Positions 2,135 to 33,968 of a DNA stretch of 35,920 bases are shown here, piece after piece (positions within the stretch are counted from its first letter, which is position 1; each line of letters begins with the position of its first letter). The stretch lies in IMG/VR virus record IMGVR_UViG_3300025070_000018, one strand, 5' to 3'. The notes below the pieces were generated by a model. It did not search any database, was not told the DNA's origin, and saw only the letters and a program-made list of their open reading frames with translations. A program made the translations under genes and the position numbers. The DNA is from an uncultured virus (IMG/VR IMGVR_UViG_3300025070_000018) (Duplodnaviria > Heunggongvirae > Uroviricota > Caudoviricetes).

Positions 2135-2937
2135 TATTTATCTCCTTTCGTATTGCTCTCTTTGAGTTTAGACTGCGCATTACTTTGAATAGAATCAAAT
2201 AACTTTTGCAAGTTAAGTTCAATGTTCGGCTCTATTAAAGACGGCGCGGTAACTTTCAGATCCATTCTATGATCTGACATTGTACGTAACGTGCGCTCTG
2301 TTCCTTTACTAGATGAACGAGTATCTATTCTGCATACACAGTTAAAGTACCTACCTATCTTAGTAGATAACTTCGAACCGACAGATGTTGGATATGCTTT
2401 TGACACACCCAAATCGCCTTCCATATACTGCATGTGCGTGGTTACCACTACATTACATTTCACTTCATTGCCTGTGATATATTGTATAATGTTCTGGACA
2501 TCACGCGCCGCCGCTCCCCACTCGGGTTGGCTGGCTTGCTCTGTTGGTTTCTTATTGTTAAAGACAAGAGCCGCTCTCAAAGCAGCTTCGCCTAACAGTG
2601 TGAGGGAATCAATTACTAAAACTGTATCGTCTCCCCACTCTTTCACAGGACCTAAGTCTTCATCGCCATCTTTCCAATGGGATAACAAACGTGCCCCTCG
2701 TCTAAACGAGTCCGCCTGTCCTAGTGAATCTCTTAACGTAACATATGAAACGTTCTGTACTGCCTCGGGTTTTAAAAACTCGGGCAAGATATCAAGTCCG
2801 TCATCATAGTCTAGTATACGTAATTTTTTACCTGCGTTAGCTAAACTCGCTAGAGCAGATGTCTTACCACTACCACTATCTCCGCAGAGTAATAGCTTGG
2901 TAACACTTGTTGATTTATGTTTACTTATGTTTGCCAT
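2134..2937 (-). CDS. AAA_24/Sak4-like P-loop ATPase (single-strand annealing recombinase)
   Basis: Walker A GDSGSGKT, LRILDYDDG, Walker B LVIDSLT, VVVTTH. Confidence 0.8.
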   Translation of the reverse strand: MANISKHKSTSVTKLLLCGDSGSGKTSALASLANAGKKLRILDYDDGLDILPEFLKPEAVQNVSYVTLRDSLGQADSFRRGARLLSHWKDGDEDLGPVKEWGDDTVLVIDSLTLLGEAALRAALVFNNKKPTEQASQPEWGAAARDVQNIIQYITGNEVKCNVVVTTHMQYMEGDLGVSKAYPTSVGSKLSTKIGRYFNCVCRIDTRSSSKGTERTLRTMSDHRMDLKVTAPSLIEPNIELNLQKLFDSIQSNAQSKLKESNTKGDK

Positions 2938-2962
2938 ATACTGGTCTCCTATAATGTTTTGA

Positions 2963-2990
2963 ATTATATACTATTAAAAAGATTTGTCAA
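2963..2990 (-). promoter_or_regulatory. Sigma70-type promoter TTGACA-N16-TATAAT
   Basis: Consensus hexamers (2990-2985 and 2968-2963) in the intergenic gap upstream of the ATPase. Confidence 0.75.
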
Positions 2991-2995
2991 GAAAA

Positions 2996-3955
2996 TTATT
3001 TACCACCCTTGATAACTTCAAGTTCTTGTGGTTTTGTTTCTTCTAAATCTGGGTGATACTCTTGGTGAAAGTCATTACCAAAGAACATTCCCCTTTGTGA
3101 TTTCGCATGAGCACATGCTTCTCTATATCTGCAACCGCCGTAGTTTCCACATGATGTAAAGTTCGCGGGATAGTATTGCGAGCTAGCATATACATCTGAT
3201 ATACTAAGATGATGCAACGTATCATTGTACCACTCATCAATTAATTCTTTAGGTACAGTGTATACTTGTCTTGCAAACCTTGTGAAGTTCGCGCCTGTCT
3301 GCACTGCATCAATGATGAAGCCATCCACAGGTAACTTCAATACTTCACGACACGCCCAGATGTATGCGAACACTTGGTTGTTGGGCATATAGCCATTGAA
3401 ATACCAGTCTGACAAAGCAGTCTTAGTTGTCTTGGTGTCAACCAGGTACAGCCTGTCATCAATAGAAACAATCTTATCTATTCGACCGCTGAACCTATGA
3501 CCTTGGTCACCAATGGGTACTTCAAACCTTTGCTCTAGTGCTGGCGATCCGTCTGGCATGGTAGCTAGCTTTAGCTTATCATCCCAGAACTCTTCTGCTT
3601 TCCAAACAACCGCTCGGAGCGCCGCCTCTAAACCTCTTGCATTTTCATCAGCAAGTTTTAAATCCTCACCGTAATCACGCAAGACCATAGCTACCGCACG
3701 TTTTGTAGATTCACTTTTAGTTAACCCCTCGTGCCTCGCTTTGTCTAGTTCTTCTAAGCCATGGTGTACTGCGGAACCAAATCCTGTAGCACTTGAGTAG
3801 CTTGTAGATTTCCAACCGTCTAACACAGACAGCTTGTAATATCTAGGGCAAGCTAAGAAAGAACTTAGGCTTGAAGTGTCCCATATCTTTTGGATGGGCT
3901 GATTGTTTTCATCCCATACAAACTTTCTAATTCTTGGTAATTCGTTCTCACTCAT
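2996..3955 (-). CDS. PD-(D/E)XK exonuclease, Cas4/RecB/AddB-like, probable Fe-S cluster
   Basis: CPRYY; FGSAVH; GRIDKI..LVDTKT; QVFAY; C-terminal C-x5-C-x5-C. Confidence 0.85.
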   Translation of the reverse strand: MSENELPRIRKFVWDENNQPIQKIWDTSSLSSFLACPRYYKLSVLDGWKSTSYSSATGFGSAVHHGLEELDKARHEGLTKSESTKRAVAMVLRDYGEDLKLADENARGLEAALRAVVWKAEEFWDDKLKLATMPDGSPALEQRFEVPIGDQGHRFSGRIDKIVSIDDRLYLVDTKTTKTALSDWYFNGYMPNNQVFAYIWACREVLKLPVDGFIIDAVQTGANFTRFARQVYTVPKELIDEWYNDTLHHLSISDVYASSQYYPANFTSCGNYGGCRYREACAHAKSQRGMFFGNDFHQEYHPDLEETKPQELEVIKGGK

Positions 3956-5226: not shown

Positions 5227-5346
5227 CTATCCTATTATATTTAATACAACACCTATAGCTAACAGAATAAATACTCCGTATGTAGATACCCACATCATTG
5301 CACCTGTTATTCTATTACATATATCTTCCAAGATAATTAGATTCAA
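5227..5346 (-). CDS. Putative 39-aa membrane peptide
   Basis: TTG start overlaps the GGCT stop; MNLIILEDICNRITGAMMWVSTYGVFILLAIGVVLNIIG fills the gap exactly. Confidence 0.45.
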   Translation of the reverse strand: MNLIILEDICNRITGAMMWVSTYGVFILLAIGVVLNIIG

Positions 5347-5774
5347 TCTCTGCCACTCCATTCTTTTATGTTCTTTATTGTTGTCACTCTGAAATCAGAG
5401 AGAACTTCTTTCCCTGTAATTTTCGCTGGTGTTTCTTCTACTAAAAACATTTCTGCCACATGCTCTGTGCCATCCTCTAGTTCCACTAGCGTATTTACAA
5501 GTGTATATCCTGCATTGAGTTCCATATCACACACGGCTGCGTAAACGTTATCATCTTTAACATGATACAGCTCGCCTTTGATTCTGTATTTACACACCTT
5601 GTTATCGTAGTGTCTAAATGTTATTGGATAACTGTGCAAGAAATCTTTGATAGTATAATTACTATCTACGGTTATTGCTTTGCCGATTCTTTTTTGTTTT
5701 GCCATTAGCCCGTTGAGTCTTTCTCCCTTTTTGAGAGTTCCGTACACGAACACTAATCTTTTTTGTTTTACCAT
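5343..5774 (-). CDS. Gamma-glutamylcyclotransferase (GGCT/AIG2-like)
   Basis: VFVYGTLKKG, YP, IKGELYHV, DME..GY motifs. Confidence 0.85.
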   Translation of the reverse strand: MVKQKRLVFVYGTLKKGERLNGLMAKQKRIGKAITVDSNYTIKDFLHSYPITFRHYDNKVCKYRIKGELYHVKDDNVYAAVCDMELNAGYTLVNTLVELEDGTEHVAEMFLVEETPAKITGKEVLSDFRVTTIKNIKEWSGRD

Positions 5775-6117
5775 TCTCTCCCTTCATGTTTTCGCGTAGC
5801 CATTCTTTGAGTTCAGAACGACAGAGTAATTCTGTCATAAAGTTTCCAAAGGAATTAACTACTGTCTCTTCTTCTTTATCTTTAAGTTGATACTGATAGT
5901 ACGCAACGTGCATACACTCATGTATCACTACATTCACAGCATCAGCACCACCGCGTTCAATCATTTCCTTATCAAGATAGATTTTATACGGCGGTTTCTG
6001 TACGAATGTACCTTGTGCCTCACTTACTTCATACATGATATCATGGGGGGCACATATTAATTCCACCGAAAATGGTCCGATAGTTATATATTTAGGTAGC
6101 TTCTTACTCTTCGCCAT
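5662..6117 (-). CDS. Putative zincin-like metallopeptidase (HExxH)
   Basis: VVIHECMH...EEETVVN; start set at MAKSKK just downstream of a promoter. Confidence 0.6.
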   Translation of the reverse strand: MAKSKKLPKYITIGPFSVELICAPHDIMYEVSEAQGTFVQKPPYKIYLDKEMIERGGADAVNVVIHECMHVAYYQYQLKDKEEETVVNSFGNFMTELLCRSELKEWLRENMKGENGKTKKISVRVRNSQKGRKTQRANGKTKKNRQSNNRR

Positions 6118-6122
6118 AGTTT

Positions 6123-6151
6123 TGTATACCATGTATCATGTTCTTTGTCAA
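6123..6151 (-). promoter_or_regulatory. Sigma70-type promoter TTGACA-N17-TATACA
   Basis: Hexamers at 6151-6146 and 6128-6123; ATG 5 nt downstream. Confidence 0.65.
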
Positions 6152-8068: not shown

Positions 8069-8113
8069 ATTATATTCCTTTCATGATTAAAGTCAAGTTG
8101 TTATTGTGTCGCA
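8069..8113 (-). promoter_or_regulatory. Promoter TGCGACA-N10-TTGACT-N16-TATAAT
   Basis: Box 8113-8107, -35 at 8096-8091, -10 at 8074-8069. Confidence 0.75.
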
Positions 8114-8314
8114 CCGAGTATACGCGACAAATATCCGAGATAAATCCGAGGGTCTATAAAATTGTAAATCTGACCCCCACATCCCTCTAATATACGATTT
8201 AAAATATATATTTATTTATTTATATAGTATATATTTGGGCGTGGCACCCTTCAGTTTTACCAACCCTCGTGTTTATGTCGGACTTATGTCGCATATCTAC
8301 GTGAGGAAAATACA

Positions 8315-9052
8315 CTATGCTACCATGCGATAGCCATGCTCACTCCAACCTCTAACTTTTGGACTGTTAAAGGTGGGTAATATAGTGCCGTAAGATAAAC
8401 TCACCATAGCATATGCTAAGTTATTTGGTATAGCTTTAATGCTAGGTGGTCGTAGCTCAGGTAAAACTCTATCGGGGGATAGAGAATCACCACTCGCGTT
8501 AAAGTATGGTACTGATACCTTAGCTTTAGGATACAAGTTAGGATATGATCTCCATATAGAGGGTTGCTTCAAGATTTTACGCATAACTTTATGCCTAGGT
8601 TCTTCGGGCAAGGACTCTTGCATCCAGTGTTGGCGATTCATTCTTGTACCAATGATAGCAGTACAGTAGAAGCTATCGAAAGCATTTCTATTTTTGTTCT
8701 TAGTATCAGCCACAGATTGCATAGCTTTACGTGTACCAGATTCAGTCTCAATCAGATTGAATCTATGCAACCCTTCGTATATAGGTGGCTTGACTTTAAC
8801 GACTACCCACTTAACGTCTTTGAGATACTCGTTGTTGTAGCATGAGAAGTAATTACGTATGATGTTTAAGTCATACTTATCACTGATTGGCTTAGATAAA
8901 GCGTCATAGTTGACAGTATTCTTGTTGATTAATAAAGCTGATGATCTGTTCTTGACCATGTATAGCTTTTGAATATAACCGTTAACTTCATGGAAAGCTA
9001 TCAGTGATTTGTGTCCGTATGGACAAGGCGTTAGCTTTAGTTTTCTCGTCAT
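8315..9052 (-). CDS. Basic hypothetical protein, 245 aa
   Basis: Long ORF coupled (TAATG) to the GATase gene; no motif recognised. Confidence 0.7.
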   Translation of the reverse strand: MTRKLKLTPCPYGHKSLIAFHEVNGYIQKLYMVKNRSSALLINKNTVNYDALSKPISDKYDLNIIRNYFSCYNNEYLKDVKWVVVKVKPPIYEGLHRFNLIETESGTRKAMQSVADTKNKNRNAFDSFYCTAIIGTRMNRQHWMQESLPEEPRHKVMRKILKQPSIWRSYPNLYPKAKVSVPYFNASGDSLSPDRVLPELRPPSIKAIPNNLAYAMVSLSYGTILPTFNSPKVRGWSEHGYRMVA

Positions 9053-9969
9053 TACAGTGCCCCCTTCTTATCTATTAAGTCATCAAACACGTCATACAAA
9101 TCCAACTCAGATGCACTGACCAAATCGCTCAGCATTTGGGCGGTACCTGTTGGGTTGTGGTAGACCACTTCGGATATGTCTGCTTGGCTTAGCCCCGCAA
9201 GGTCGCCTAAGTTGTATGGCTCGTTATCATCACACAAGTCCATAGATTTTTCGGCGTTTGTTTTACTTACACTTTTGTCGTATTCAAATGTGTTTGAATC
9301 ATATGAGTATGGATTCCATGCGGAATTGAATGATATGTATTTGTTCTTAGGCTTGCTAGATATGGTATCAGTTTGAACATCATAATCACTACCCATACCA
9401 CGATTGATTGAGTATGTATTGGATAGCCACATGTTATCCATAGTTTCACCATGGTCCTCGTTGGCAATAGTAAACTTACCATTGGAACCGTCAAGGAATA
9501 GCAGTTTATCAGAGCCGATTGAATCTTCAATCATCTCTAACCAATCCTTGTTGTATATAAGTTCGGGATTGTTAGATAGCATTGGACGTAGTACCCACTT
9601 GACATATTGATGTGTATCAGATTTGTCTACATCAATCATTGGTGTGGGTAATTGTGGACCGTTATGCATTAACCATATGTCCCTGTTGTGTTGCTTCTTG
9701 TTAAGCACTTCGAATGGGTGGCAGTTAGCTTTGTTAGTACCACCGTTAGTTGTGAATCTGAAGTGTAAACCCATTGGGATTTTCATATCTTTGTATTTAT
9801 CCCAGAGTTTGATAACATCATACTCATTGTTTGGCAGTTCTTTGAATGTTTGAATCTTGCCGTCTGCAAGAAACATACCACCAAATCCGTCTGAATTGTT
9901 GGAGTATGCTGACTTGAGTAAATTAGATTTTAACTCACTTGCATTGTCGCTTTTAATAATTAAACACAT
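9052..9969 (-). CDS. Class II (Ntn) glutamine amidotransferase
   Basis: N-terminal MC, NSDGFG, HFRFTTNG, NCHPF, MHNG, SDT. Confidence 0.9.
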   Translation of the reverse strand: MCLIIKSDNASELKSNLLKSAYSNNSDGFGGMFLADGKIQTFKELPNNEYDVIKLWDKYKDMKIPMGLHFRFTTNGGTNKANCHPFEVLNKKQHNRDIWLMHNGPQLPTPMIDVDKSDTHQYVKWVLRPMLSNNPELIYNKDWLEMIEDSIGSDKLLFLDGSNGKFTIANEDHGETMDNMWLSNTYSINRGMGSDYDVQTDTISSKPKNKYISFNSAWNPYSYDSNTFEYDKSVSKTNAEKSMDLCDDNEPYNLGDLAGLSQADISEVVYHNPTGTAQMLSDLVSASELDLYDVFDDLIDKKGAL

Positions 9970-11237: not shown

Positions 11238-11269
11238 GTAAACCTCACTTTCATAACATTATTAAAGAC

Positions 11270-11314
11270 AGTATAACACTAAGTGCGAAAATGTAAACTG
11301 TACATTGTGTCGCA
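11270..11314 (-). promoter_or_regulatory. Promoter TGCGACA-N10-TTTACA-N16-TATACT (extended -10 TG)
   Basis: Box 11314-11308, -35 at 11297-11292, -10 at 11275-11270. Confidence 0.7.
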
Positions 11315-11350
11315 CTTAGTAAGAAGTTTTCAAAGTCAATTTTCCACATA

Positions 11351-11617: not shown

Positions 11618-11831
11618 TATTTACCCCCCATTTATTGCGTAAGTTATTGATTGTTAGGCTATTGTTAGTAAACTCTGATTTTGCTTCGATATAATCCATA
11701 AATCTCAGCTTATCAAATCGGTTGTTTGATCTCGCTAATATGTGCGTTATATCCTCAACCATAGCTTTGGTTGGATTATGCTTTGCAATTAGTTCAGCGA
11801 ATTCAATAAAATCTTTTCTTGTTAATGCCAT
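11610..11831 (-). CDS. Early hypothetical protein
   Basis: MALTRKDFIEFAELI...NNRFDKLRFM pattern. Confidence 0.7.
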   Translation of the reverse strand: MALTRKDFIEFAELIAKHNPTKAMVEDITHILARSNNRFDKLRFMDYIEAKSEFTNNSLTINNLRNKWGVNNG

Positions 11832-12979: not shown

Positions 12980-13186
12980 TCAGGGAGCGGGCGGGCGTTT
13001 GTGCTTGTCGATATATTCCTTGAGGCTGAGGTCGACCCTGTCTGATTTTCGCGTGCCCCCTTGACTGAGGAAGTCCGCCAGCAGGTCGGCAAATTGGTTG
13101 GGGCTTAAGCCATGTGACAACACACGCAATAAGCGCGAAATTCTTTTTTTGATTTTCTCGTTTGATAATATGCGATGATGACCCAT
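12980..13186 (-). CDS. Hypothetical protein, 68 aa
   Basis: ORF divergent from terS; weak RBS. Confidence 0.4.
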   Translation of the reverse strand: MGHHRILSNEKIKKRISRLLRVLSHGLSPNQFADLLADFLSQGGTRKSDRVDLSLKEYIDKHKRPPAP

Positions 13187-13294
13187 AGGCTTTTTGTTCG
13201 AGGGGGCACGCCGAGTGAGGTCAGCGTTTTAAAGCCCCCTCTCTTACAGGAGACACCCGCGAAGCGGGATACTAGAATAGTACCACAACAGCCC

Positions 13295-13874: not shown

Positions 13875-15452
13875 TTGCTTACATCACAGAATAATTCTCA
13901 AGCCACAGTAGAAGATAGAGACGCAGCAACTAGGCTAGCAGTCAAACAAGCGCGTGATGACTTACTAGCATTTGTAATGCTGATGAACCCTAGCTTCAAT
14001 GTGGGACCTCACCATAGACTGTTATGCGATGAGTTAATGAAATTAGAACAAGGCGATACTGACCGTCTAATGGTATTTGTATCTCCGCGTTCATCTAAGT
14101 CGCTTATTACTTCAACATACTTTCCAGCTTGGGCGCTGGGTCGTAATCCTTATTGGCAGGAAATTGCAGTATCTCACTCAGATGACTTAGCTACTAAGTT
14201 TGGTAGAGCTATTCGTGATATTATTAATACCACAGCCTACAACACTATATTCCCTAAAGTAAAAATTAAAAAAGATAATCGCGCAGCAAACTCTTGGGCA
14301 CTAGAAGAAGGCGGCAAAGTAGCAGGAAGTTTCTTAGCTGCAGGTTCTGGCTCAGGTATCGCTGGTTTTGGTGCGCACTTAGCAGTTATTGATGACCCAA
14401 TCTCTGAGCAAGATGCTTATTCTAAGACAAGGCGTGAACAATTAAACGAATGGTATGCTTCTGGTTTACGAACACGACTAATGCCAGGTGGAAAAGTTGT
14501 GCTGGTGATGACAAGGTGGCACGAAAATGACTTAGCAGGTCACTTGTTAAAGCAGCAAGAGGCTTCACCCCTAGCAGATAAGTGGAATGTTGTACGAATA
14601 CCTGCGCTAAATACTGCAGAATCTTCAGAACAACTAACAAAAGCTAGAAACTCTCTAATTGAACAGGGGTATTTATCAGAAACGTACCCTGAACCTAAGC
14701 TTGGTGAGTCTTTCTGGGGGGCACCTGATCGCGAAAATGGATTTTGCTGGTCAACGGAGGACATTATTCGTACAAAGAACAACACACCCCCGTTTAAATT
14801 TGACGCATTGTACCTACAAAGCCCATCATCTGAGACAGGGGGCATCATTCAAGTAGATTATTGGCAAGATTGGAGCAGTGAAGACCCTCCTGAGTGTGAT
14901 TTTATCATACAATCCTGGGATACAGCGTTCTCTACCCGCACAACTGCAGACTATTCTGTAATTACTACGTGGGGTGTCTTTAAAAAGGACGAACTTAGCA
15001 TGGCAAACATGGTATTGCTAGGAATGGAGAAGGGTCGCTGGGATTTTCCTACACTAAGACAGAAAGCTGTGGACAAATTTATGAAACATAAGCCAGATTC
15101 CATAGTGATTGAGAAAAAAGCTTCGGGTCAATCGTTAATTCAAGACCTAAGACTAGCAGGTTTACCTATACAAGAGTATCAACCTGATCGAGACAAAGTA
15201 TCACGCGCATATGCTATCAGTTCTTTGTTTCATAACGCAAGAATCTACGCACCACTAGATAAAGTGTGGGCAAAAGAAACTATTGAAGAGTGTCGCCAGT
15301 TCCCATCGGGACCTCATGACGATATTGTAGACTCTGTTACACAAGCAGTGCTATATGTACGTAATGGCGGGTACTTAGAACATAGTGATAATTCATGGCT
15401 TGACTTAGACGAGTCATCAGTGTATAATAGAAAACGCAGACGTTATTATTAA
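13875..15452 (+). CDS. terL: Terminase large subunit
   Basis: SPRSSKS Walker A, AVIDDP Walker B, MTRWH, QSWDTA and HDDIVD nuclease motifs; TTG start uncertain. Confidence 0.95.
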   Translation: MLTSQNNSQATVEDRDAATRLAVKQARDDLLAFVMLMNPSFNVGPHHRLLCDELMKLEQGDTDRLMVFVSPRSSKSLITSTYFPAWALGRNPYWQEIAVSHSDDLATKFGRAIRDIINTTAYNTIFPKVKIKKDNRAANSWALEEGGKVAGSFLAAGSGSGIAGFGAHLAVIDDPISEQDAYSKTRREQLNEWYASGLRTRLMPGGKVVLVMTRWHENDLAGHLLKQQEASPLADKWNVVRIPALNTAESSEQLTKARNSLIEQGYLSETYPEPKLGESFWGAPDRENGFCWSTEDIIRTKNNTPPFKFDALYLQSPSSETGGIIQVDYWQDWSSEDPPECDFIIQSWDTAFSTRTTADYSVITTWGVFKKDELSMANMVLLGMEKGRWDFPTLRQKAVDKFMKHKPDSIVIEKKASGQSLIQDLRLAGLPIQEYQPDRDKVSRAYAISSLFHNARIYAPLDKVWAKETIEECRQFPSGPHDDIVDSVTQAVLYVRNGGYLEHSDNSWLDLDESSVYNRKRRRYY

Positions 15453-15462
15453 GGATTGATTT

Positions 15463-17886
15463 ATGGCAGTAGAAAAACAATTTGACATTCCAGAGGGAGA
15501 AGAACTATCTCTCTTTGAAGACTTACCAGAAACACCAGAGCAAGACACTAATGTAATGGCAACACCTGATGGTGGTGCAGAGATTACACTAGAAAATAAA
15601 GCAATGGCAGAAGAAGCTGAGGCAATGGGTCTCTTTGACGATATGGAGATGAGCCCTGATGCAATGCAGCATGATGCGAACCTCGTAGATTTTATAGATG
15701 ACAAAGAGCTAGGCGCTATTGGCAATGAGCTACAAGATTCATTTGAACGTGACAAACAATCAAGAGATGAATACGATTCTATTGCCGAAGATGGTGTAGA
15801 CCTTTTAGGTTTTAAAGCAGAAGAAAGCGATGAGCCATTTCCTGGAGCATGTGCTTCTTCACATCCTGTACTATCACAGGCGGTTGTAAAGTTTCAAGCA
15901 AAAGCATATAAAGAATTATTTCCCACTGAAGGTCCAGTGCGTACACGAATTGTTGGTTTACAAACTCAACAGAAAATGGAGCAAGCAAATCGTGTGCGTC
16001 ACTTTATGAATTATCAAACACAAGTTCAAATGCCTGAGTATGGTCCTGAGCTCGATCGTTTGCTATTTTATGTAGCGCTTTATGGTTCTGCATTTAAGAA
16101 AACATATTGGGATGTTAGTTTACAAAGACCAAGAACTGAATATGTTAAAGCACAAGATTTTTACATTGACTACTACGCGTCGGATTTAGAAACTGCTGAG
16201 AGATTTACTCACAAGTATTCTATGTCTATGAATCAAATCAAAAAGTTTCAGATGGCTGGAACATTTGCTGATGTAGAAGTTAATGATAGTTACTTAGATG
16301 AGTCAGCTGCTCAAGAAGCTTCTGATGAAATCTTAGGTGTGACTAAACCATATGGTGATACTGACCGTGTAGAAATTTTAGAGATGCACGTTAACTTAGA
16401 TTTACCAGGCTTCGAAGATCCAGATGGATTAAAACTTCCTTACATTGTTCACATGACAGATGAAGGAAAGATTCTGGCAATTCGCAGAAACTGGAATGCA
16501 GAAGATTTTAAAAAAGAAAAAAAATTATACTTCACTCATTACTACATGATTCCTGGTTTAGGTTTCTATGGTTATGGATACTTACACTTGATTGGAGGCT
16601 TAACCAAAACCGCAACATCATCTATGAGACAATTAGTAGATGCAGGTACGTTCGCAAATTTACCTGGCGGATTCAAAGCACACGGACTACGAGTGTTAGC
16701 ACCAGACGAGCCTATAGCTCCTGGTGAGTGGAGAGAAGTTAATAGTCCTGCGGGTGACTTAGGTAAATCATTACAACCTTTACCATTCAAAGAACCTTCA
16801 GGAACTTTATTTAATTTAATGCAGTATGTTGTTAATGCTGCAAAAGAGTTTGCTGACTCGACCGACAACATAGTAGACCAAGCGTCAAACTATGGTCCAG
16901 TCGGTACAACAATGGCTTTGCTTGAGCAAAGTTCAAAGTTGTTCAGCGCTGTGCACAAGCGTCTGCATAACGCCCAATCCAAAGACCTGCGAATCTTAGC
17001 GAGATTAGATTTTGAGTATCTTCCTGATCTGTACCCGTATGAGGTCGCAGGTGGTGCACAGCAAGTTTTCAAAAATGATTTTAATTTAAAGTCAATTGAT
17101 GTTCTTCCTGTCTCTGATCCAAACATGCCAACTGAAGCGCATCGCATAGCAAAAATTAATGCCATCATGCAGATAGCACAACAGAATCCAAATGCATATA
17201 ACATGGAACAAATAGGCATGGAATTATTTTCTGCAATGGGTATTGAAGAGCCTCAAAGATATTTGAAGCAACAGCAACAACCTATCTCTGCAGACCCTGT
17301 AACGGAAAACATGGCATCTATGAAAGGTGCCCCTCTCACCCCGAGACCAGATCAAAACCATGATGCTCACATTGTATCTCATGCCTCGATGCTGCAGAAT
17401 CCTGCATACAAAGGAAACCCTGTAATGATACAAACTTTATCATCTCACATTCAAGATCACTTGGCTATGAAATACCGAAATGAAGTAGCGCAAATGATTG
17501 GCGATCCTCAGATTGTACAAGCCATGATGTCAGGTCAACCACTTCCACCAGAAGTAGAAAATCAAATTGCCTTGCTTACAGCAAATGCATCAGATTCTAT
17601 TATGAAGTTAGATGAAGAAAAACAAAAGATTATGTCTGGCGAAAAGAAAGATACGCAAGAACAACAGATTGAATTGCAACAACAAGATTTAGAACTACGC
17701 AAAGCAAGACTAGCCTTAGACGCAAAGAAGCATCAAGACGAAATGACATTAGAAGAATCAAAAGTAATTATCAATGATGAAAATACTGATCTCGAACGCG
17801 AGCGTAAGATGGCAAAAGATGCTATGGACATGGCAAAGCAAGGAATACAAAACGCAAAGATAATGATTAAACGAGAGGAGCTGTAA
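15463..17886 (+). CDS. Portal protein (P22-like, long)
   Basis: Follows TerL; GSAFKK, PGLGFYGYG, LVDAGTFANLPGGFK, PVGTTMALLE; C-terminal coiled coil. Confidence 0.9.
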   Translation: MAVEKQFDIPEGEELSLFEDLPETPEQDTNVMATPDGGAEITLENKAMAEEAEAMGLFDDMEMSPDAMQHDANLVDFIDDKELGAIGNELQDSFERDKQSRDEYDSIAEDGVDLLGFKAEESDEPFPGACASSHPVLSQAVVKFQAKAYKELFPTEGPVRTRIVGLQTQQKMEQANRVRHFMNYQTQVQMPEYGPELDRLLFYVALYGSAFKKTYWDVSLQRPRTEYVKAQDFYIDYYASDLETAERFTHKYSMSMNQIKKFQMAGTFADVEVNDSYLDESAAQEASDEILGVTKPYGDTDRVEILEMHVNLDLPGFEDPDGLKLPYIVHMTDEGKILAIRRNWNAEDFKKEKKLYFTHYYMIPGLGFYGYGYLHLIGGLTKTATSSMRQLVDAGTFANLPGGFKAHGLRVLAPDEPIAPGEWREVNSPAGDLGKSLQPLPFKEPSGTLFNLMQYVVNAAKEFADSTDNIVDQASNYGPVGTTMALLEQSSKLFSAVHKRLHNAQSKDLRILARLDFEYLPDLYPYEVAGGAQQVFKNDFNLKSIDVLPVSDPNMPTEAHRIAKINAIMQIAQQNPNAYNMEQIGMELFSAMGIEEPQRYLKQQQQPISADPVTENMASMKGAPLTPRPDQNHDAHIVSHASMLQNPAYKGNPVMIQTLSSHIQDHLAMKYRNEVAQMIGDPQIVQAMMSGQPLPPEVENQIALLTANASDSIMKLDEEKQKIMSGEKKDTQEQQIELQQQDLELRKARLALDAKKHQDEMTLEESKVIINDENTDLERERKMAKDAMDMAKQGIQNAKIMIKREEL

Positions 17887-20276: not shown

Positions 20277-20289
20277 GAGGGGGCACGGT

Positions 20290-23434: not shown

Positions 23435-23463
23435 GGGGGTATCTTTCCAGGTGCCCCCTCTTT
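23435..23463 (+). terminator. Probable intrinsic terminator
   Basis: GGGGGTATCT-ttcc-AGGTGCCCCC followed by TCTTT. Confidence 0.6.
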
Positions 23464-24100: not shown

Positions 24101-25078
24101 ATGATAGAAGACCCAAAACAAGAAGAACTTAATCAAGAGGATGAACTCGAGATTGAGATTGATGAAGGGGGGCACGAAGAGAGCCAACCTGAAGAGCAGC
24201 CAGCTCCAGAACCAGAAACTCCCGAAACTGATGAAGTTGAAGATGAAGATCCTGTAGAGGAAGAAACACCTGAATTAATTCCAGAAGAAGAGGAAGAGTC
24301 TGATGACAAAACCAAATATGGCAAACGAGCTGAGAAGCGAATCAAACGCCTAGTCAAGCAACGTAAGGAGCTTGAGGAAAAATTAAAATCACTAGAAGAT
24401 GAGAAACAAAAGTTTCAGTCTGAACGTGAAGAACTTCTAGGTAGATCCGCAGAGTCAGAACTAGCTGCAGTTACGCAGTACGGTGACAGACTTAAGGCTC
24501 AAGAGAGAGAAGTACTAGCTACTCTTAAAGATGCTAAATCAAATGGTGATGTAGATAAAGAAATAGAAGCTACCGATAAGTTAGCTTCGATTAAAGCTGA
24601 GTCTCTCATTGTTAAACAGTACGAAGAGAAAGCTAAGTCAGCTTCTACTAAAAAAGTTTCTGCTGAAGAAACTGTTGAGAAGCCGCAAAATAACACTCCT
24701 GTCCCAGACAGAAGAGCTATTCAGTGGCAGAAAAGAAACTCATGGTTTGGTGGGCAAAACCAATCTGAAAAGATTATGACCCAAGCAGCCATGGTAGTAC
24801 ACAAGGAGTTAATAGATGAAGGTATATATCCTGACGCTGATCCTGGTGAGTACTATAGTGAACTTGATGCTCGCATCCGTTCTGAGTTTCCTGAAAAATT
24901 CAAGACAGCGAGTACAGCGAAAAAAGTACAAGTAGTAGCGGGTGGAACGCGCACTTCCCCCAGTGGCAAACAGAAAGTCACATTGACTAAATCAGAGGTA
25001 GACACTGCTAATAAGTTAGGAGTATCTTTACAAGAATATGCGCGACAAAAAATGCGCCGAGATGGAACGGCGGGATAA
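24101..25078 (+). CDS. Putative capsid scaffolding protein
   Basis: Acidic N-terminus, long coiled coil, W..RNSWFG, C-terminal ANKLGVSLQEYA; upstream of MCP. Confidence 0.7.
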   Translation: MIEDPKQEELNQEDELEIEIDEGGHEESQPEEQPAPEPETPETDEVEDEDPVEEETPELIPEEEEESDDKTKYGKRAEKRIKRLVKQRKELEEKLKSLEDEKQKFQSEREELLGRSAESELAAVTQYGDRLKAQEREVLATLKDAKSNGDVDKEIEATDKLASIKAESLIVKQYEEKAKSASTKKVSAEETVEKPQNNTPVPDRRAIQWQKRNSWFGGQNQSEKIMTQAAMVVHKELIDEGIYPDADPGEYYSELDARIRSEFPEKFKTASTAKKVQVVAGGTRTSPSGKQKVTLTKSEVDTANKLGVSLQEYARQKMRRDGTAG

Positions 25079-27136: not shown

Positions 27137-27172
27137 GATAGGGGGTTTACCATAAAGGTGCCCCCTTCCTTT
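27137..27172 (+). terminator. Probable intrinsic terminator after MCP
   Basis: GGAtAGGGGGtttACC-ataaa-GGTGCCCCCTTCC followed by TTT. Confidence 0.6.
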
Positions 27173-27780: not shown

Positions 27781-27789
27781 GGGGGGCAC

Positions 27790-28503
27790 GTGGCAACTTC
27801 TGGCACATACACGTTCAGCCTTGACATAGCTGAAATAATACAAGAGGCGCACGAGCGCGTCGGATTAGAACTCAAGTCGGGTTACGACTTAGTAACAGCT
27901 AGACGTTCGCTCAACTTACTTCTGACTAAATGGGTTAATGAAGGCGTGAATTTATTCACTCTTGATTTAACAACAATTAATCTTACACAAAATCAATCTA
28001 CATTCTCTATTGGTTCAAATCAATATCTTGATATATTAGATGCTAGTGTACGTGACACTAACAGCACACCTTCAACAGATACAGCTTGTGAAAGAATCAG
28101 TTTATCTGAATATTTAAACTACCCAAACAAATCTACAAAAGGCAAGCCTGTTCAATATGCAGTTGAACGTAACAGCCAGTATGATTCCTCAGGCGTAGCA
28201 TCTCACACAGGATATTTATTTCCTGTACCTGATCAAACATATTATCAATTACTTTGCTGGACTATTAGATATCCGCAAGATGTAACAGATACATATACAC
28301 AAAACCCAGATATCCCTAGAAGATATTTACCAGCATTAATTAGTGGGCTAGCTTTTGAAATAGCTAATAAAAATCCTGCTAAAGTAGATGCCGCTAGACG
28401 TGGTGAATTGAAATCTATTTATGTGGAAGAGTGGCAGTTTGCAAAAGAAGAGGATAGAGAAAGAGCAAGTTTTTATATTCAACCTAAGATTCGCGGGTAC
28501 TAA
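27790..28503 (+). CDS. Head-tail adaptor / tail tubular protein A-like
   Basis: ATSGT..IIQEAHER..ARRSLNLL..W.NEGVNL..PNKSTKGKP.QY..FPVPD; GTG start. Confidence 0.7.
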   Translation: MATSGTYTFSLDIAEIIQEAHERVGLELKSGYDLVTARRSLNLLLTKWVNEGVNLFTLDLTTINLTQNQSTFSIGSNQYLDILDASVRDTNSTPSTDTACERISLSEYLNYPNKSTKGKPVQYAVERNSQYDSSGVASHTGYLFPVPDQTYYQLLCWTIRYPQDVTDTYTQNPDIPRRYLPALISGLAFEIANKNPAKVDAARRGELKSIYVEEWQFAKEEDRERASFYIQPKIRGY

Positions 28504-29351: not shown

Positions 29352-30040
29352 TGGGATTAACATATAATCAACTTAAACAAAACGTGCAAGATTGGCTAGA
29401 AAATTCAGCCGTATCTTTTACAACAGCAACAGGTAGCGGTAAAGCTCCTATTGATTTGTGTATTGAATTAGCTGAATTACGTATAGCAAAAGAGACAGAC
29501 CTTACTGCCTTCAGAAAAATTTCAACACTATCCTTGACAGGGGGCACGGCAACAGTAGCAGTACCTTCTGACATGGTTATACCAAGATACTTAAGGATTC
29601 TGAATGGAGATTTCTTATTAGATAAAGATGAATCATTTATCAAAGAGTACAATAAGAATCCGTCGAGTACGGGCACAGTTAAATACTATGCCTTAAATCA
29701 AACTGGAACAACATATACAAGTGGAAATCGACAAACTAATTTCTTGTTTGGACCAACTCCAGCCCTTGCAACAACAGTAGAAATAGGGTATACTATTAGA
29801 GTTCCAGGGTTATCACCAAGCAATCAAAACACTTATCTAGGTGATAATGCCCCAGACGCCATACTATACGGTACACTGATTGAAGCTATAGGATATATGA
29901 AAGAGACACCTCAAGTAATAGAACTATGGCAAGGTTATTACAATCGAGCAATCCAAACATTGGCGAATGAGGAACAAGTAAGAATGCGAAATGATGAGTT
30001 TCGTAATGGTGAACTAAGAACAATGCAGAGAGGACAATAA
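29351..30040 (+). CDS. Second adaptor-like virion protein
   Basis: TYNQLKQNVQDW, IELAELRI, FGPTP, YLGDNAPDAILYGTLIEA; TAATG coupling. Confidence 0.7.
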   Translation: MGLTYNQLKQNVQDWLENSAVSFTTATGSGKAPIDLCIELAELRIAKETDLTAFRKISTLSLTGGTATVAVPSDMVIPRYLRILNGDFLLDKDESFIKEYNKNPSSTGTVKYYALNQTGTTYTSGNRQTNFLFGPTPALATTVEIGYTIRVPGLSPSNQNTYLGDNAPDAILYGTLIEAIGYMKETPQVIELWQGYYNRAIQTLANEEQVRMRNDEFRNGELRTMQRGQ

Positions 30041-30043: not shown

Positions 30044-30499
30044 ATGGCAATTACATCAGCAATATGTAATAGCTTTAAACAAGAGATTTTACAAAGTAAA
30101 CACGACCTAACTAATGGTTCAGGTAATACTTTTAAGATTGCTCTGATTAAAGCTGAATCAGCCCAAAGCGGTACTTATGGCGCCTCGACCACAAATTACA
30201 CAGACGTAACTGGAAACAGTGATGAGCTAGCTAATGGTAGTGGATATACTACAGGTGGTAACACTTTAGTAAGTGTAACTCCTACATTAGATGGATCAAC
30301 AGCAGTTTGTGATTTTGCTAATACATCATGGTCAAGTGCTACATTTACTACAAGAGGTTGTATAATTTATAACACAGACGATTCTAACTCAGCCTTAATG
30401 GTGTTAGATTTCGGAGCAGATTATTCGGTTTCTAATGGTACATTTACCATTGAGTTTCCAACAGCAGACGCAAGTAACGCAATTATAAGGATTAGTTAA
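30044..30499 (+). CDS. Conserved tail-associated protein
   Basis: MAITSAICNSFKQEIL..FKIAL..GYTTGG..LDFGAD..GTFTIEFP. Confidence 0.75.
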   Translation: MAITSAICNSFKQEILQSKHDLTNGSGNTFKIALIKAESAQSGTYGASTTNYTDVTGNSDELANGSGYTTGGNTLVSVTPTLDGSTAVCDFANTSWSSATFTTRGCIIYNTDDSNSALMVLDFGADYSVSNGTFTIEFPTADASNAIIRIS

Positions 30500-30999
30500 T
30501 GGCATCTACCTGGAGTAACGGTGGTTTAAACTTACGTTTAATGACCACAGGTGAGAACGATAACACCTGGGGAGATCAAACGAATGATAACTTAAAACGT
30601 CTTGAGAACAAGATTACAGGTTATGCTTCTGTTTCATTATCAGGTACAACACACACATTAACATTTACTACTGACCCCACTTCTTACACTGACGAAGATG
30701 GAAGAAACTTTGTCCTTAACTTCGGAGGTTCACCAGGGGGCACTTGTACGGTTACCATACCTGCACTAGAAACAGTGTACATGGTGCTGAACAATACAGC
30801 AGATAGTAATGACATAATCCTAACAACTGGTAGTGGTACAACATTTACTGTACCTGCTGGGCGTGACGCGTTTGTTTATTCGGATGGTACTAATGTAGCT
30901 AATGCATTAGCTGACCTCCAAGTTACAACAGTAAATGGTACAGATTTAACAACTGTTCCATCAAGTGGATTCGTAATCGCAATGGCGATTGCATTATAA
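30499..30999 (+). CDS. Tail fibre-related protein
   Basis: TGENDNTWGDQTN, YSDGTNV, C-terminal IAMAIAL. Confidence 0.7.
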   Translation: MASTWSNGGLNLRLMTTGENDNTWGDQTNDNLKRLENKITGYASVSLSGTTHTLTFTTDPTSYTDEDGRNFVLNFGGSPGGTCTVTIPALETVYMVLNNTADSNDIILTTGSGTTFTVPAGRDAFVYSDGTNVANALADLQVTTVNGTDLTTVPSSGFVIAMAIAL

Positions 31000-31998: not shown

Positions 31999-32609
31999 TG
32001 TTTGCTCTAGTAGAAAATAATCAATTCGTTAAGACAGTATCTTCTAGCAAAGGGATTGAACTTAACGGTGTACAATATCCTAAAACAATTTTCACATTAT
32101 GGACTGAAGCAGAAAGGAATGCGATAGGACTTTATGAGATCAATGTTAATTCGGAAAACAAAAAGGATGAAGCGTATTACATTAATACGAACATCACATA
32201 CGCTTTTAACGGTGGGACTGTTACTGGTTCTTACGGTACTTCTACCGCTAAACCTTTAACTAATATTTTATTTACTGAAGAAGATGAGATTCCTTCTGAT
32301 AGAGTCGTGGGTGATATCAAACAGTATGGATTAAAAGAACAAAAGATTTCTATTATTAAACAACAAGCTGCAGGCTTATTAGCGCCAACAGATTGGCATG
32401 TAGTTAAAGCAGCAGAAGTTGCAGAGTATTCTGTACCTACAGATATCTCTACATACAGAGCTGCAGTTCGTACAGCATCTAATGATATGGAAACAAAGAT
32501 CAATGCGGTAGCAGATGTAGATGCACTGAAAACTTTATACGAATACACAGAACAAGAAGATGAAACTTTTACTAGACCACTTGGTGAGTTTCCAAAGGAG
32601 ATCGAATAA
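31998..32609 (+). CDS. Tail fibre assembly chaperone-like protein
   Basis: LLAPTDWHVVK..YRAAVR motif. Confidence 0.65.
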   Translation: MFALVENNQFVKTVSSSKGIELNGVQYPKTIFTLWTEAERNAIGLYEINVNSENKKDEAYYINTNITYAFNGGTVTGSYGTSTAKPLTNILFTEEDEIPSDRVVGDIKQYGLKEQKISIIKQQAAGLLAPTDWHVVKAAEVAEYSVPTDISTYRAAVRTASNDMETKINAVADVDALKTLYEYTEQEDETFTRPLGEFPKEIE

Positions 32610-33199
32610 TGGCTATATCTAAAATACAAGCAGAGAGTATGAATCTTGCAGATACTTATGACTTTACAGGTACTGTTACTGGAACACCAAACGATATGGT
32701 TCAAGTTGCTAGTGCTACAGGCGGTGGTACAGCAACACAAGTATTTAATGGGTGTTTTACAAGCACTTATAAATTTTATTTAGTATTAGCTAGTTATAAT
32801 TTATCTGCAACAGGTACTGTAAGTTTTAGATTTCAAGATTCTTCTAATAATGAAATTACAACATCAAATTATTATAATGCAGGTCTTAATGGAAGAATGG
32901 AAATTGGAGGCTCTGGTGTAAGTAGTATTGGTAATTGGGGTGGAACATCAATTCATCATGGTAAAGTCTCTTTAAATGTAGCAGAGCCTAGTGTAAAAAT
33001 GTTTGTCTATAATCCATTTGCTAGTGAAAAAACAGTATGTGACACAGTATTTCACGCTCAAGATAATGCTAGTGGTTTTAATACTGTCTTTATGGGTACA
33101 ACTCTTGATTCAGCGACATCAGTGACTGGTATAAGGTTTTTAAACTATTCAGGTAATTTTAATTCAAGGTCTGAATTTAGAATATATGGGATAAAATAA
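32609..33199 (+). CDS. Fibre tip / receptor-binding module
   Basis: FTSTYKFY, VTGIRF, FRIYGIK. Confidence 0.65.
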   Translation: MAISKIQAESMNLADTYDFTGTVTGTPNDMVQVASATGGGTATQVFNGCFTSTYKFYLVLASYNLSATGTVSFRFQDSSNNEITTSNYYNAGLNGRMEIGGSGVSSIGNWGGTSIHHGKVSLNVAEPSVKMFVYNPFASEKTVCDTVFHAQDNASGFNTVFMGTTLDSATSVTGIRFLNYSGNFNSRSEFRIYGIK

Positions 33200-33513
33200 T
33201 GACAAACGAAAATAAAAAATTTGTAGTATCGCCAGAGAATCCTAAAGGAGTATTGGTAGATATGACATCAGAAGAAATAGCACAAAGAAAAAAAGATTTA
33301 GATGCTATACCTTCAGAACTTGATAGAGCATTAAACAGTCTTAGAGAGAAAAGAAACAATTTATTAGCCAAAACAGATTGGACTAGCAGTAGTGATTTAA
33401 CAATGTCTGATGCTATGACAACTTATAGACAACAACTTCGTGATGCTACAACAGGACTAGATACTGTAGAAAAAATAGAAGCATACGAATTTCCAACAGA
33501 GGTATTAAAATAA
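33199..33513 (+). CDS. Phage tail assembly chaperone
   Basis: LREKRNNLLAKTDW..YRQQLRD..FPT. Confidence 0.75.
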   Translation: MTNENKKFVVSPENPKGVLVDMTSEEIAQRKKDLDAIPSELDRALNSLREKRNNLLAKTDWTSSSDLTMSDAMTTYRQQLRDATTGLDTVEKIEAYEFPTEVLK

Positions 33514-33968
33514 TGGCATACATAGGTAGAGTACCACAGACTGGCGCATATCAACTCATAGATGATATCTCAGGATCATTCAACGGTACCTTAACAAGTT
33601 TCACTTTACAGTCTGGCTCGCAGAATATTTCTGTAGAGACAGAGCAGTCTTTAATCATCAGCATTTCAGGCGTTGTCCAGTACCCAAATACGGCGTACAC
33701 TGTTAGCGGCAACACGATTACATTCACCAGTGCCCCCCTTGCGACCGATACGTTTAGCGGCGTGCTGTTAGGAAATGTATTTGATATCGGAACTCCAACG
33801 GATGCAACCGTAGGGCAAGCATCATTGAGCTCCACATTCATCTCGCAAAACGCGCAGACATTTAACAACATAACAATTGGTGCAAGCAAGAACGCTTCAG
33901 CCGCAGGACCAATTACTGTCAGCGGAACTTTAACCATTCCATCTGGTAGTACTTTTGTGATAGTATAG
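33513..33968 (+). CDS. Tail fibre-related protein
   Basis: MAYIGRVP..SGVVQYP..ITFTSAP; C-terminal AGPITV..TIPSGSTFVIV. Confidence 0.7.
   Translation: MAYIGRVPQTGAYQLIDDISGSFNGTLTSFTLQSGSQNISVETEQSLIISISGVVQYPNTAYTVSGNTITFTSAPLATDTFSGVLLGNVFDIGTPTDATVGQASLSSTFISQNAQTFNNITIGASKNASAAGPITVSGTLTIPSGSTFVIV

Follow-up and report, generated by a model that had tools for sequence, protein, structure and literature searches.

The DNA analysed here, a stretch of 35,920 nucleotides from an uncultured virus of the Caudoviricetes (the window), has a GC content of 38.8%, against the 37-38% estimated in an earlier sequence-only reading, and is present in runs from 15 marine studies (22 runs, assembled contigs). 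It covers approximately 60% of a phage genome of about 60 kb; the whole phage, as referred to below, is the window joined via record G001. Genes for a Sak4-like protein, the small and large terminase subunits, the portal, an Hsp20 protein, the major capsid protein, an adaptor, a second adaptor-like protein and a tail-fibre-like product are distributed along the window. Thirteen copies of a single octamer, GGGGGCAC, lie inside, between or at the edges of these and other ORFs (Table 1). The sequence-only reading had placed all thirteen, on both strands, at their exact coordinates; it had also listed two copies of a variant with four G residues, AGGGGCAC, of which one was correctly located and the other starts at 17327 rather than 17328.

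Table 1. Copies of the word and of its four-G variant in the window, with their sequence context and their state in related phages.
Element	Position	Strand	Context	Related phages
AGGGGCAC, four-G variant	2691..2698	minus	Inside Sak4-like gene (2134-2937, minus), sense; "A dialect" form	
GGGGGCAC	6046..6053	plus	Antisense inside ORF 5662-6132 (minus); peptide ICAPH	Same peptide in G002 written GCC CCT, so that the motif is absent
GGGGGCAC	9057..9064	minus	End of ORF 9052-9969 and ribosome-binding position of ORF 8315-9052	Word also at this junction in G002, despite a non-homologous left flank
GGGGGCAC	13053..13060	minus	Left arm of inverted pair upstream of terS; inside small ORF 12980-13186	Word in 13/13 aligned loci
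GGGGGCAC	13202..13209	plus	Right arm of inverted pair (14-nt arms TCRAGGGGGCACGC); 123 nt before terS start	Word in 18/26 aligned loci
GGGGGCAC	14717..14724	plus	Inside terL, sense frame; peptide FWGAP	Word in 20/80 aligned loci
AGGGGCAC, four-G variant	17327..17334	minus	Antisense inside portal gene	Full GGGGGCAC in 34/57 aligned relatives
GGGGGCAC	20279..20286	plus	13-nt gap between ORFs 17886-20276 and 20290-20568; ribosome-binding position	
GGGGGCAC	23451..23458	minus	Complement forms 3' arm of terminator-like hairpin after Hsp20 gene	Word in 11/11 aligned loci
GGGGGCAC	24168..24175	plus	Inside ORF 24101-25078, sense; peptide EGGHE	GAG GGG CAC (A form) in G002
GGGGGCAC	27158..27165	minus	Complement forms 3' arm of terminator-like hairpin after major capsid gene	Word in 7/8 aligned loci
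GGGGGCAC	27782..27789	plus	Abuts GTG start of adaptor gene 27790-28503	
GGGGGCAC	29540..29547	plus	Inside second adaptor-like gene, sense; peptide TGGTA	Kept in G003; TQNVS in G002, TANTN in G004
GGGGGCAC	30736..30743	plus	Inside ORF 30499-30999, sense; peptide PGGTC	GGG GGC ACT in G002, G003 and G004
GGGGGCAC	33730..33737	minus	Antisense inside tail-fibre-like ORF 33513-33968; peptide TSAPL	TTALA or SSATT

Several copies occupy positions with a second possible function, all of which had been picked out from the letters alone. The copies at 9057, 20279 and 27782 are found 1-5 nt upstream of a start codon. Those at 23451 and 27158 are part of hairpins (-19.4 and -19.5 kcal/mol, respectively), which are followed by T-rich runs (TCTTT in the former). 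The inverted pair upstream of terS has arms that are 93% complementary.

Far fewer copies are expected by chance. In 100 dinucleotide-preserving shuffles of the window, the mean was 0.19 and the maximum 2, and none reached 13, in line with the earlier estimate of well under one copy. The excess persists under an order-3 Markov model of the whole phage, in which 30 copies (1 per 2.0 kb) are found against 0.85 expected, approximately a 35-fold excess, making GGGGGCAC by far the most over-represented 8-mer of this genome. In contrast, the 24 single-letter variants of the word occur at background level (0-3 copies each; 13 together, with 17.6 expected), which fits a reader of the exact octamer. 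Of the 33 occurrences of GGGGGCA in the whole phage, 30 continue with C. In the window, AGGGGCAC is not above chance, with 2 copies against 0.52 expected and at least 2 in 10 of 100 shuffles.

Preferences at the flanks are weak. An A precedes the G run in 11 of the 13 window sites (8 with five G residues and 3 with six), as the sequence-only reading had noted, and a T in the other 2. Throughout the phage, a purine is present at position -1 in 28/30 sites and a G at +1 in 16/30. Such preferences hint at a footprint of some 10-11 bp, as a duplex-binding protein might have.

The word is independent of the coding frame. Copies occur in all three frames, sense and antisense, and 23 of 30 are located inside ORFs, where a synonymous-codon shuffle of the whole phage predicts 1.36 ± 1.09. 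GGGGGCAC is about 5-fold denser outside ORFs, which constitutes 4.6% of the DNA. Both strands are selected: within ORFs, there are 17 sense copies against 1.19 expected (about 14-fold) and 6 antisense copies against 0.19 (about 30-fold). Strand counts are balanced in the phage and its relatives (18:12, 11:13, 7:8 and 6:7). Spacing is slightly more even than in random placement (coefficient of variation 0.62-0.77 vs 0.90-0.95), and there is no clustering. No polarity was detected among the 30 copies beyond that of gene direction (20 co-oriented, 10 not), and the series of orientations along the genomes has no switch point.

Relatives whose TerL is at least 73% identical share the excess: 80 loci carry 165 copies of the word and one of the reversed word. 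Five larger records of such relatives feature 11-24 copies each and none of the reversed word. Sites are also conserved individually, at 16/23 (70%) in G002 and 10/21 in G003, compared with 21% and 14%, respectively, for all aligned 8-mers. Word sites are thus about 3-fold better conserved than other 8-mers, yet they are turning over. The site at 30736, kept in three relatives, is evidently old, whereas the terL site, found in a quarter of the aligned loci, is a derived gain. Upkeep by synonymous codons is exemplified by the peptide AKGAP, encoded by AAG GGG GCA CCT here and by AAA GGT GCG CCA in G002. At times, sites are bought with amino acid changes, as in TerL, in which FWGAP stands in place of the FWEEP or FWPAP of relatives.

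The spelling of the word changes within the clade. In a more distant subclade, R takes the place of the initial G, giving RGGGGCAC, and the A form, AGGGGCAC, is enriched in G003, G004 and G414. The spelling AGGGGG(G)CAC proposed from the window alone gives way to RGGGGCAC as the functional word across the wider clade. The word is restricted to a single clade. Phages that have the structural module in common, among them the distant cultured relative HTVC023P, lack it, with 1 copy each in HTVC023P and MW202426 and none in HTVC027P, 023Pt_psg01 and DSL-LC04. Compared with the motif-less HTVC023P, the clade differs in the whole replication/recombination arm and in TerS. Genes for the UDG-exonuclease, a 145-aa ORF, Sak4, the exonuclease, a GATase-like protein, an amidoligase, the HTH-nuclease, a DUF3987 helicase and TerS are conserved throughout G002-G004, and tblastn detects none of them in HTVC023P.

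GGGGGCAC, or RGGGGCAC in the wider clade, is best explained as a short recognition word kept by DNA-level selection at about 1 per 2-4.5 kb on both strands of marine podophages of about 60 kb. The proposal that it is a DNA-level site under selection, fitted into whatever sequence surrounds it, is borne out by its independence of frame and strand, its survival of the codon shuffle, its conservation and its upkeep by synonymous codons. None of the outcomes named in advance as refuting it, namely loss of the enrichment under a Markov or codon-shuffled null and a lack of enrichment or conservation in relatives, came about. The accompanying list of candidates (a Chi-like site, a site for a packaging or condensing protein, a primase site, or a nick or modification site) is not decisively narrowed, and nothing in the analysis favours a primase or a nick site.

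Our best guess, held tentatively and at less than even odds, is that the word is a Chi-like host signal. A host end-processing helicase-nuclease of the RecBCD or AddAB type would read it, spare the linear phage DNA, whether injected or replicating, from further degradation, and pass it on to recombination. Zheng et al. 2025 (PMC12315714), who cite Bobay et al. 2013, describe Chi-rich phages (LLS, P1, MD8) with similar traits: an exact asymmetric octamer that is the top 8-mer at about 1 per 2 kb (1 per 1.86 kb in LLS and 1 per 1.90 kb in P1, close to the density found here), embedded in coding sequence beyond what codon usage explains, gained and lost over time, and differing between host lineages (GCTGGTGG in E. 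coli and GCTGGCGC in Pseudomonas). The shift from G to R between subclades may be analogous to these host-lineage differences. No Gam-type RecBCD inhibitor was found among the ORFs scanned with Pfam and PHROGs.

Other features set this phage apart from the Chi-rich phages. According to the same source, their sites are read by a known host enzyme, are polar (20/23 in one orientation in LLS and 32/32 in MD8), are clustered near one end and occur in genomes without a recombination module. Here, strands are balanced, sites are evenly spread, and the phage has genes for a Sak4-like annealing protein (PF13479, phrog_124) and a PD-(D/E)XK (Cas4-like) exonuclease (PF12705, phrog_1218). The missing polarity may follow from the mode of packaging, and lowers membership in the class of Chi-rich phages more than it lowers the mechanism. 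Because both terminase subunits are present and related genomes assemble as circles, packaging is probably headful; with ends occurring anywhere, both orientations would have to be present all along the genome, in keeping with the balanced strands and slightly even spacing. The word is also unlike proteobacterial Chi words, and the footprint suggested by its flanks would suit a duplex-binding protein. A search for TerL homologues in genome contigs returned four distant matches (29-32% identity).

Close behind the Chi-like reading ranks a possibility we rate somewhat lower, in which a clade-specific phage protein reads the word as a dispersed "self" tag. Candidate readers include an SF6/SPP1-type small terminase and the HTH-fused Mre11/PolD-DP1-like phosphoesterase. 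The approximately 30 copies, in either orientation, could then mark the phage genome anywhere along a concatemer for protection, for packaging initiation or terminase loading at many sites, for the loading of replication or recombination proteins, or as anchors for condensation. Since the range of the word coincides with a clade whose replication/recombination arm and TerS set it apart from motif-less relatives, a phage-encoded reader is as readily available as a host one. The N-terminal DNA-binding domain of TerS is SF6/SPP1-like (3zqp, E 1.8e-10), the conserved inverted pair with its extended arms lies just upstream of terS, selection on both orientations and the 10-11 bp footprint are as expected for a duplex binder, and the change of first letter could track a diverging phage protein. 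Against this, one HTH domain seldom requires eight exact base pairs, while one-letter variants are at background here, and the phage's ordinary regulatory-looking word, TGTCGCA(C), behaves quite differently, being concentrated between genes in the early region. We know of no phage process, and found none in literature searches, that needs some 30 dispersed intragenic sites, and tailed phages are not known to have a dispersed recognition system of this sort. The inverted pair, 123-279 nt before terS, invites comparison with the pac site of headful phages, a single site or cluster in or beside terS to which TerS binds, but 28 further copies are dispersed, and no pac system known to us shows dispersed extra copies.

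The remaining explanations are less probable. The word could be a "highly iterated" word of the host lineage, uptake-sequence-like or HIP1-like, which the phage has in common through host repair or recombination bias or a host DNA-binding system rather than nuclease control. We consider this unlikely, although Neisseriaceae (DUS) and Pasteurellaceae (USS) uptake sequences are likewise short exact words that occur on both strands and in all frames, with one-letter dialects and some copies in terminators. They have 9-12 letters, compared with 8 (or 7) here, belong to naturally competent hosts and not to a marine phage of lytic appearance, and in terminators typically occur as full inverted pairs. 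In contrast, the two terminator copies described above pair with GGGGGTATCT or GGGGGTT..ACC, a different left arm and not a second copy of the word. Moreover, passive sharing leaves unexplained the purifying selection on sites, well above background in a lytic-looking phage. The word is not enriched in 401 Actinomycetota genomes or in E. coli K-12, none of which is a plausible host. Less probable still is a target for a phage enzyme that nicks DNA (as in T5) or modifies bases sequence-specifically. Such an enzyme might be sought among the products of the amidoligase-like, class-II glutamine-amidotransferase-like, gamma-glutamyl-cyclotransferase-like and T4 endonuclease V-like genes and the HTH-fused phosphoesterase nuclease, but there is no evident reason for its targets to accumulate. 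Known phage nick sites are on one strand, whereas the word is on both, and the ends of assembled contigs are not enriched near it (2/126 within 60 nt against about 1.8 expected).

A role in RNA or gene expression, as a Shine-Dalgarno-like element, terminator arm or promoter box, is very improbable. Five of the 30 copies do lie 1-10 nt upstream of a start codon, pairing of AGGGGG with the anti-SD is possible (SD sequences are used by 47/69 phage genes), and two copies are terminator arms; GGCACG, in addition, resembles the -24 box of sigma-54 promoters. No TTGC-like -12 box is found at the right distance, however, and positions +5 to +7 are mostly A. The letters CAC are superfluous for SD use, yet the final C is nearly invariant, and most copies lie in ORFs, with the stronger enrichment on the antisense strand. 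Expression is thus contradicted as a general explanation, and accounts solely for those few copies that also serve as SD sequences or terminator arms. The T4 late promoter TATAAATA and the P1 C1 operators are also short words with tens of copies per phage genome, but these lie upstream in a fixed orientation, unlike the word studied here. FtsK KOPS (GGGNAGGG) and SpoIIIE SRS (GAGAAGGG) resemble it as G-rich octamers that are read exactly; they differ in being strongly strand-skewed toward a terminus.

An excess of this size, for which the phages pay in codon choice and even in amino acids, means that these genomes are strongly shaped by some machinery that reads DNA. Were a host nuclease the reader, the word could be used to predict the hosts of uncultured phages and would disclose which Chi word an uncultured marine bacterium uses. 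If a phage protein reads it, the word would represent genome-wide self-marking of a new kind. In both cases, the word with its G/A dialect provides a simple, testable handle.

The 35,920-base window contains 13 copies of the word GGGGGCAC, in which a run of five G is followed by CAC; 8 of them are read on the plus strand and the other 5 on the minus strand, and each copy reported in the sequence-only reading is present at its position. Dinucleotide-preserving shuffles of the window yielded a mean of 0.19 copies, with a maximum of 2. The two copies of the 4-G form AGGGGCAC noted in the same reading are also present, one of them a base away from where it had been placed (17328), although this pair alone does not exceed chance. 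Window bases 1–27818 correspond to bases 24034–51851 of G001, an overlapping record of the same phage, at 99.9% identity, and G001 extends 24 kb leftward beyond the window, a stretch with 17 further copies. The whole phage therefore carries 30 copies in approximately 60 kb. GGGGGCAC is by far the most over-represented 8-mer of the phage, and the enrichment persists under an order-3 Markov model (30 copies vs 0.85 expected), one of the nulls against which it was to be checked.

The word is used in an exact form. Throughout the phage, G stands before 30 of the 32 occurrences of GGGGCAC, C stands after 30 of the 33 occurrences of GGGGGCA, and the 24 one-letter variants occur 0–3 times each (13 in sum vs 17.6 expected). 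The flanks are mere base preferences, both at position −1 (A 19, G 9, C 2, T 0) and at position +1 (G 16, C 7, T 5, A 2; n=30). A larger repeat or mobile element is excluded, as flank conservation is limited to these weak preferences. An assembly artefact is likewise excluded, since GGGGGCAC is found in many independent assemblies and contig ends lie within 60 nt of the word in 2 of 126 cases vs approximately 1.8 expected, which is no enrichment.

Greedy ORF mapping, which assigned 95.4% of the phage sequence to 91 ORFs, places 17 of the 30 copies in the sense orientation within ORFs, with frames 0, 1 and 2 all represented, 6 in the antisense orientation and 7 outside ORFs. Synonymous codons were shuffled 300 times within each ORF, preserving every protein and the codon usage of each ORF. 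Shuffled ORFs contained 1.36 ± 1.09 copies (maximum 5) vs the 23 observed, so that the excess survives the codon-preserving control, and the proposal of a DNA-level site accommodated in coding sequences on both strands is borne out. Chance, composition and coding are thus excluded as the source of the excess by the dinucleotide shuffles, the Markov model and the codon shuffle. The codon null leans to the sense orientation (1.19 vs 0.19 antisense copies per genome); strong enrichment thus holds for both orientations, and the difference between antisense (~30-fold) and sense (~14-fold) enrichment is not significant (p = 0.086). DNA outside ORFs makes up 4.6% of the sequence yet holds 7 of the 30 copies (p = 3.6e-4), as would be the case if copies accumulated in the least constrained DNA.

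The contexts described from the sequence alone were also recovered. Five copies double as ribosome-binding sites, including the three in the window that had been recognized as such; two form the 3' arms of terminator-like hairpins, and two, with arms of 14 nt, constitute an inverted pair upstream of terS. The two strands carry 18:12 copies in this phage, 11:13 in G002, 7:8 in G003 and 6:7 in G004, the latter three being related IMG/VR records. The orientation of 20 of the 30 copies matches gene direction, and no polarity switch was seen along the phage genome. Gaps between copies are slightly more even than random (CV 0.62–0.77 vs 0.90–0.95), with p = 0.07–0.16 for each genome, the genomes being mutually non-independent. 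The sequence GGCACG resembles the −24 box of sigma-54 promoters; such a promoter is excluded, as there is no −12 box, the word occurs on both strands and most copies are within ORFs.

Coordinates of the features discussed in the text
Record	Position	Strand	Feature
Window	2691; 17327	minus	Copies of AGGGGCAC
G001	872; 22574		Copies of GGGGGCAC at ribosome-binding positions
Window	9057; 20279; 27782		Copies of GGGGGCAC at ribosome-binding positions
Window	610-1695		UDG-like domain fused to the 3'-5' exonuclease of the split family-A DNA polymerase
G001	22556-23932		Polymerase domain of the split family-A enzyme, left of the window, two small ORFs downstream of the exonuclease part
Window	5343-5774; 9052-11237		GGACT-like (PF06094), class-II GATase-like and amidoligase-like (PF12224, phrog_16683) genes, early arm
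Window	8107-12765		11 of the 12 TGTCGCA(C) copies of the window
Window	12375-12389		Palindromic TGTCGCAGTGCGACA, among the TGTCGCA(C) copies
Window	13332-13796		TerS
G001 (L009)	13762-15207	minus	Fis-type HTH (PF02954) fused to a Mre11/PolD-small-subunit-like phosphoesterase
Window	17886-20276		796-aa lectin/SPRY/DUF7483 protein
Window	23008-24021		Hsp20 (PF00011) and Cpn10/GroES (PF00166) genes, within the structural arm
G002 (L094)	17898-17971		One tRNA-Cys (GCA)

A TerL search of IMG/VR identified 237 relatives, the best 80 of which (73–100% identical, 672 kb in total) contain 165 copies of GGGGGCAC vs 1 of the reversed word. Enrichment in relatives, a further check on the proposal, is evident in the five larger records, which feature 11–24 copies each; the expectation in G002, G003 and G004 is 0.6–0.8 (order-3 Markov). 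Of the 165 copies, 50 are in DNA unaligned to the window and 115 occur at 13 window positions. For instance, the terL site is carried by 20 of the 80 aligned loci, and the portal site has the word in 34 of 57 loci, the window itself having only the 4-G form there.

Occurrence of GGGGGCAC and of the letter preceding GGGGCAC in related records
Record	Length	GGGGGCAC copies	Reversed word	G	A	Other
G001				27	2	0
G002	60.6 kb	24	0	24	4	1
G003	55.7 kb	15	0	15	8	2
G004	57.5 kb	13	0	13	8	0
G005	37.7 kb	15	0			
G006	26.1 kb	11	0			
G414 (complete; search restricted to RGGGGCAC)	60.4 kb			11	11	
Loci with TerL 73-77% identical				42	26	3

Judging from the first-letter counts across subclades, the clade-wide word is therefore RGGGGCAC, and the lineage of the window holds strictly to G. 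Between homologous sites it is precisely this letter that differs, at times through an R/K change (AGG GGG CAC here vs AAG GGG CAC in G004). Of the GGGGGCAC sites covered by BLASTN alignments, G002 retains 16 of 23 and G003 10 of 21, vs 21% and 14% identity for all aligned 8-mers, and 22% and 15% for GC-rich ones; sites are thus retained above background, in line with the selected site proposed in the sequence-only reading. How sites are retained or arise is illustrated at the codon level by the peptide AKGAP, encoded by AAG GGG GCA CCT in G001 and AAA GGT GCG CCA in G002. At the ICAPH and MRAPL sites the difference is limited to the synonymous third base. The TerL peptide FWGAP of this phage corresponds to FWEEP or FWPAP in relatives, the TGGTA site is replaced by TQNVS or TANTN, and PGGTC, encoded as GGG GGC ACT, is retained in all four genomes.

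The best 80 of the 154 relatives found in a second TerL search, from G004, share 74% identity or more throughout; this marks the clade as compact, and no lineage between it and the phage HTVC023P (TerL 36%) was found among these 80. Outside the clade, the word occurs once in HTVC023P and in MW202426, and is absent from HTVC027P, 023Pt_psg01 and DSL-LC04. The top words of HTVC023P are different and resemble glycine-repeat codons. Scanning viral contigs for the inverted-pair pattern gave at least 120 stretches; the 80 examined are mostly chance hairpins. G009, the strongest candidate (7 copies in 27.6 kb, 51% GC), is excluded as a related carrier, having no tblastx match to G002, and the word is absent from its top words. 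G003 is also enriched in GGTGCTGGT-type words (9 vs 0.4 expected), which include seven of the eight E. coli Chi letters and are probably Gly-Ala-Gly repeat codons of one protein.

Ends of homology blocks lie within 30 nt of GGGGGCAC in 4 of 21 cases vs approximately 0.5 expected, both between the window and G002 (p = 0.0005) and between the window and G003 (p = 0.001). The copies involved are all in ribosome-binding positions directly before conserved genes, and the partner carries the word at only 1 of the 4 G002 junctions and at none of the G003 junctions listed. Because this location explains the junction excess, the excess is not evidence for a recombination hotspot.

Genes of the window and the G001 stretches were identified using Pfam and PHROGs. 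Packaging and structural genes encode the small and large terminases, portal, major capsid protein, SU10-type adaptors, tail-fibre-like proteins and a 2,420-aa virion protein. The Hsp20 has viral nearest Atlas clusters. The lectin/SPRY/DUF7483 gene has no match in G002–G004 and is seemingly a virion or fibre gene that spreads horizontally. Replication and nucleotide metabolism are represented by a split family-A DNA polymerase, a DUF3987 helicase and both ribonucleotide-reductase subunits, and recombination by a Sak4-like annealing protein, a PD-(D/E)XK exonuclease (the only PADLOC hit, a weak Cas4 match) and an HTH-fused phosphoesterase nuclease. The latter features motifs such as GDxxSG, GNHS and GHYH, probably starts at the internal Met70, is 63–85% conserved in G002–G004 and has three copies of the word in its ORF. 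The GATase-like match is weak (E 2.8e-4, below the cut-off); this gene and the amidoligase-like gene are conserved in G002–G004 and, with the GGACT-like gene, may make a nucleotide, DNA or peptide modification. In contrast to GGGGGCAC, the repeated word TGTCGCA(C) lies mostly between genes, in the leftward early arm and the control region, and its copies resemble iterons of an operator, promoter or origin. TGCGACA occurs 199 times in 393 kb of relatives vs 42.5 expected.

The nearest cultured phages are HTVC023P-type pelagiphages (TerL 36% identical). The structural module is common to HTVC023P (capsid 60%, portal 41%); no tblastn match to the replication/recombination arm or TerS was found in that phage, and the HTH-nuclease and TerS have only distant homologues (24–45% identity) among cultured phages. 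Runs that contain the window stretch number 20, all of them marine or viral metagenomes, and belong to 15 studies. A TerL search of genome contigs for a host link gave only 4 distant matches, and neither the window nor the G001 stretches L009 and L010 have a tRNA according to ARAGORN. The lectin/SPRY/DUF7483 protein is 34–41% identical to proteins of Roseobacter, Pelagibacter, Methylophilales, Synechococcus and Prochlorococcus phages and, being similar across phages of such varied hosts, offers no host clue. The strong use of Shine-Dalgarno sequences (47 of 69 genes vs 10% background) speaks only against hosts similar to Bacteroidota. In E. coli K-12, 55 copies of GGGGGCAC compare with 36 of the reversed word. 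None of 401 Actinomycetota genomes (15 of them unpublished) is enriched; in the densest, at approximately 1 copy per 12 kb, the reversed word is more frequent still, and the greatest surplus over the reversed word is 30 vs 3. These counts say little, as neither E. coli nor Actinomycetota are plausible hosts.

We tentatively consider GGGGGCAC a candidate Chi-like word, possibly read by a host enzyme. Its density, exactness, clade limits and one-letter dialect all fit a word read in this way. To our knowledge, two documented processes load an exact asymmetric octamer into phage coding DNA, hoarding of the host's Chi word and sharing of uptake sequences with a competent host, and only the former reaches approximately 1 copy per 2 kb. 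Lactococcus provides a precedent for a GC-rich Chi in an AT-rich host. A full-text literature search with either strand of GGGGGCAC retrieved primers and unrelated sequences only, and the accessible portions of two pelagiphage papers (PMC9599517; bioRxiv 10.1101/2019.12.14.876532) make no mention of it. According to PMC12315714, Chi is the commonest octamer in each of the phages LLS (23 sites, 1 per 1.86 kb), P1 (50 sites, 1 per 1.90 kb) and MD8 (32 sites); this paper also cites work in which the RecBCD- or AddAB-type enzyme of Pseudomonas syringae was expressed in E. coli. The present phage differs from described Chi-hoarding phages in that the word shows neither polarity nor terminal clustering, and in its Sak4 and exonuclease module.

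The main rival, which we regard as only slightly less likely, is that the word is read by a putative phage-encoded protein. The clade differs from its motif-less relatives by exactly the gene set able to supply such a reader; moreover, the extended inverted pair at terS is conserved and the flanks of the word hint at a wider footprint. That GGGGGCAC is another host-linked iterated word of some kind is improbable. Even less probable is a nick or modification target, and an RNA-level role is most improbable as a general explanation. For the Chi-like reading, headful packaging of a permuted genome could account for the lack of polarity, as both orientations of the word would then be needed. Headful packaging is suggested by the presence of TerS and a Terminase_6-type TerL, and by the assembly of related isolates as circles described in bioRxiv 10.1101/2019.12.14.876532.
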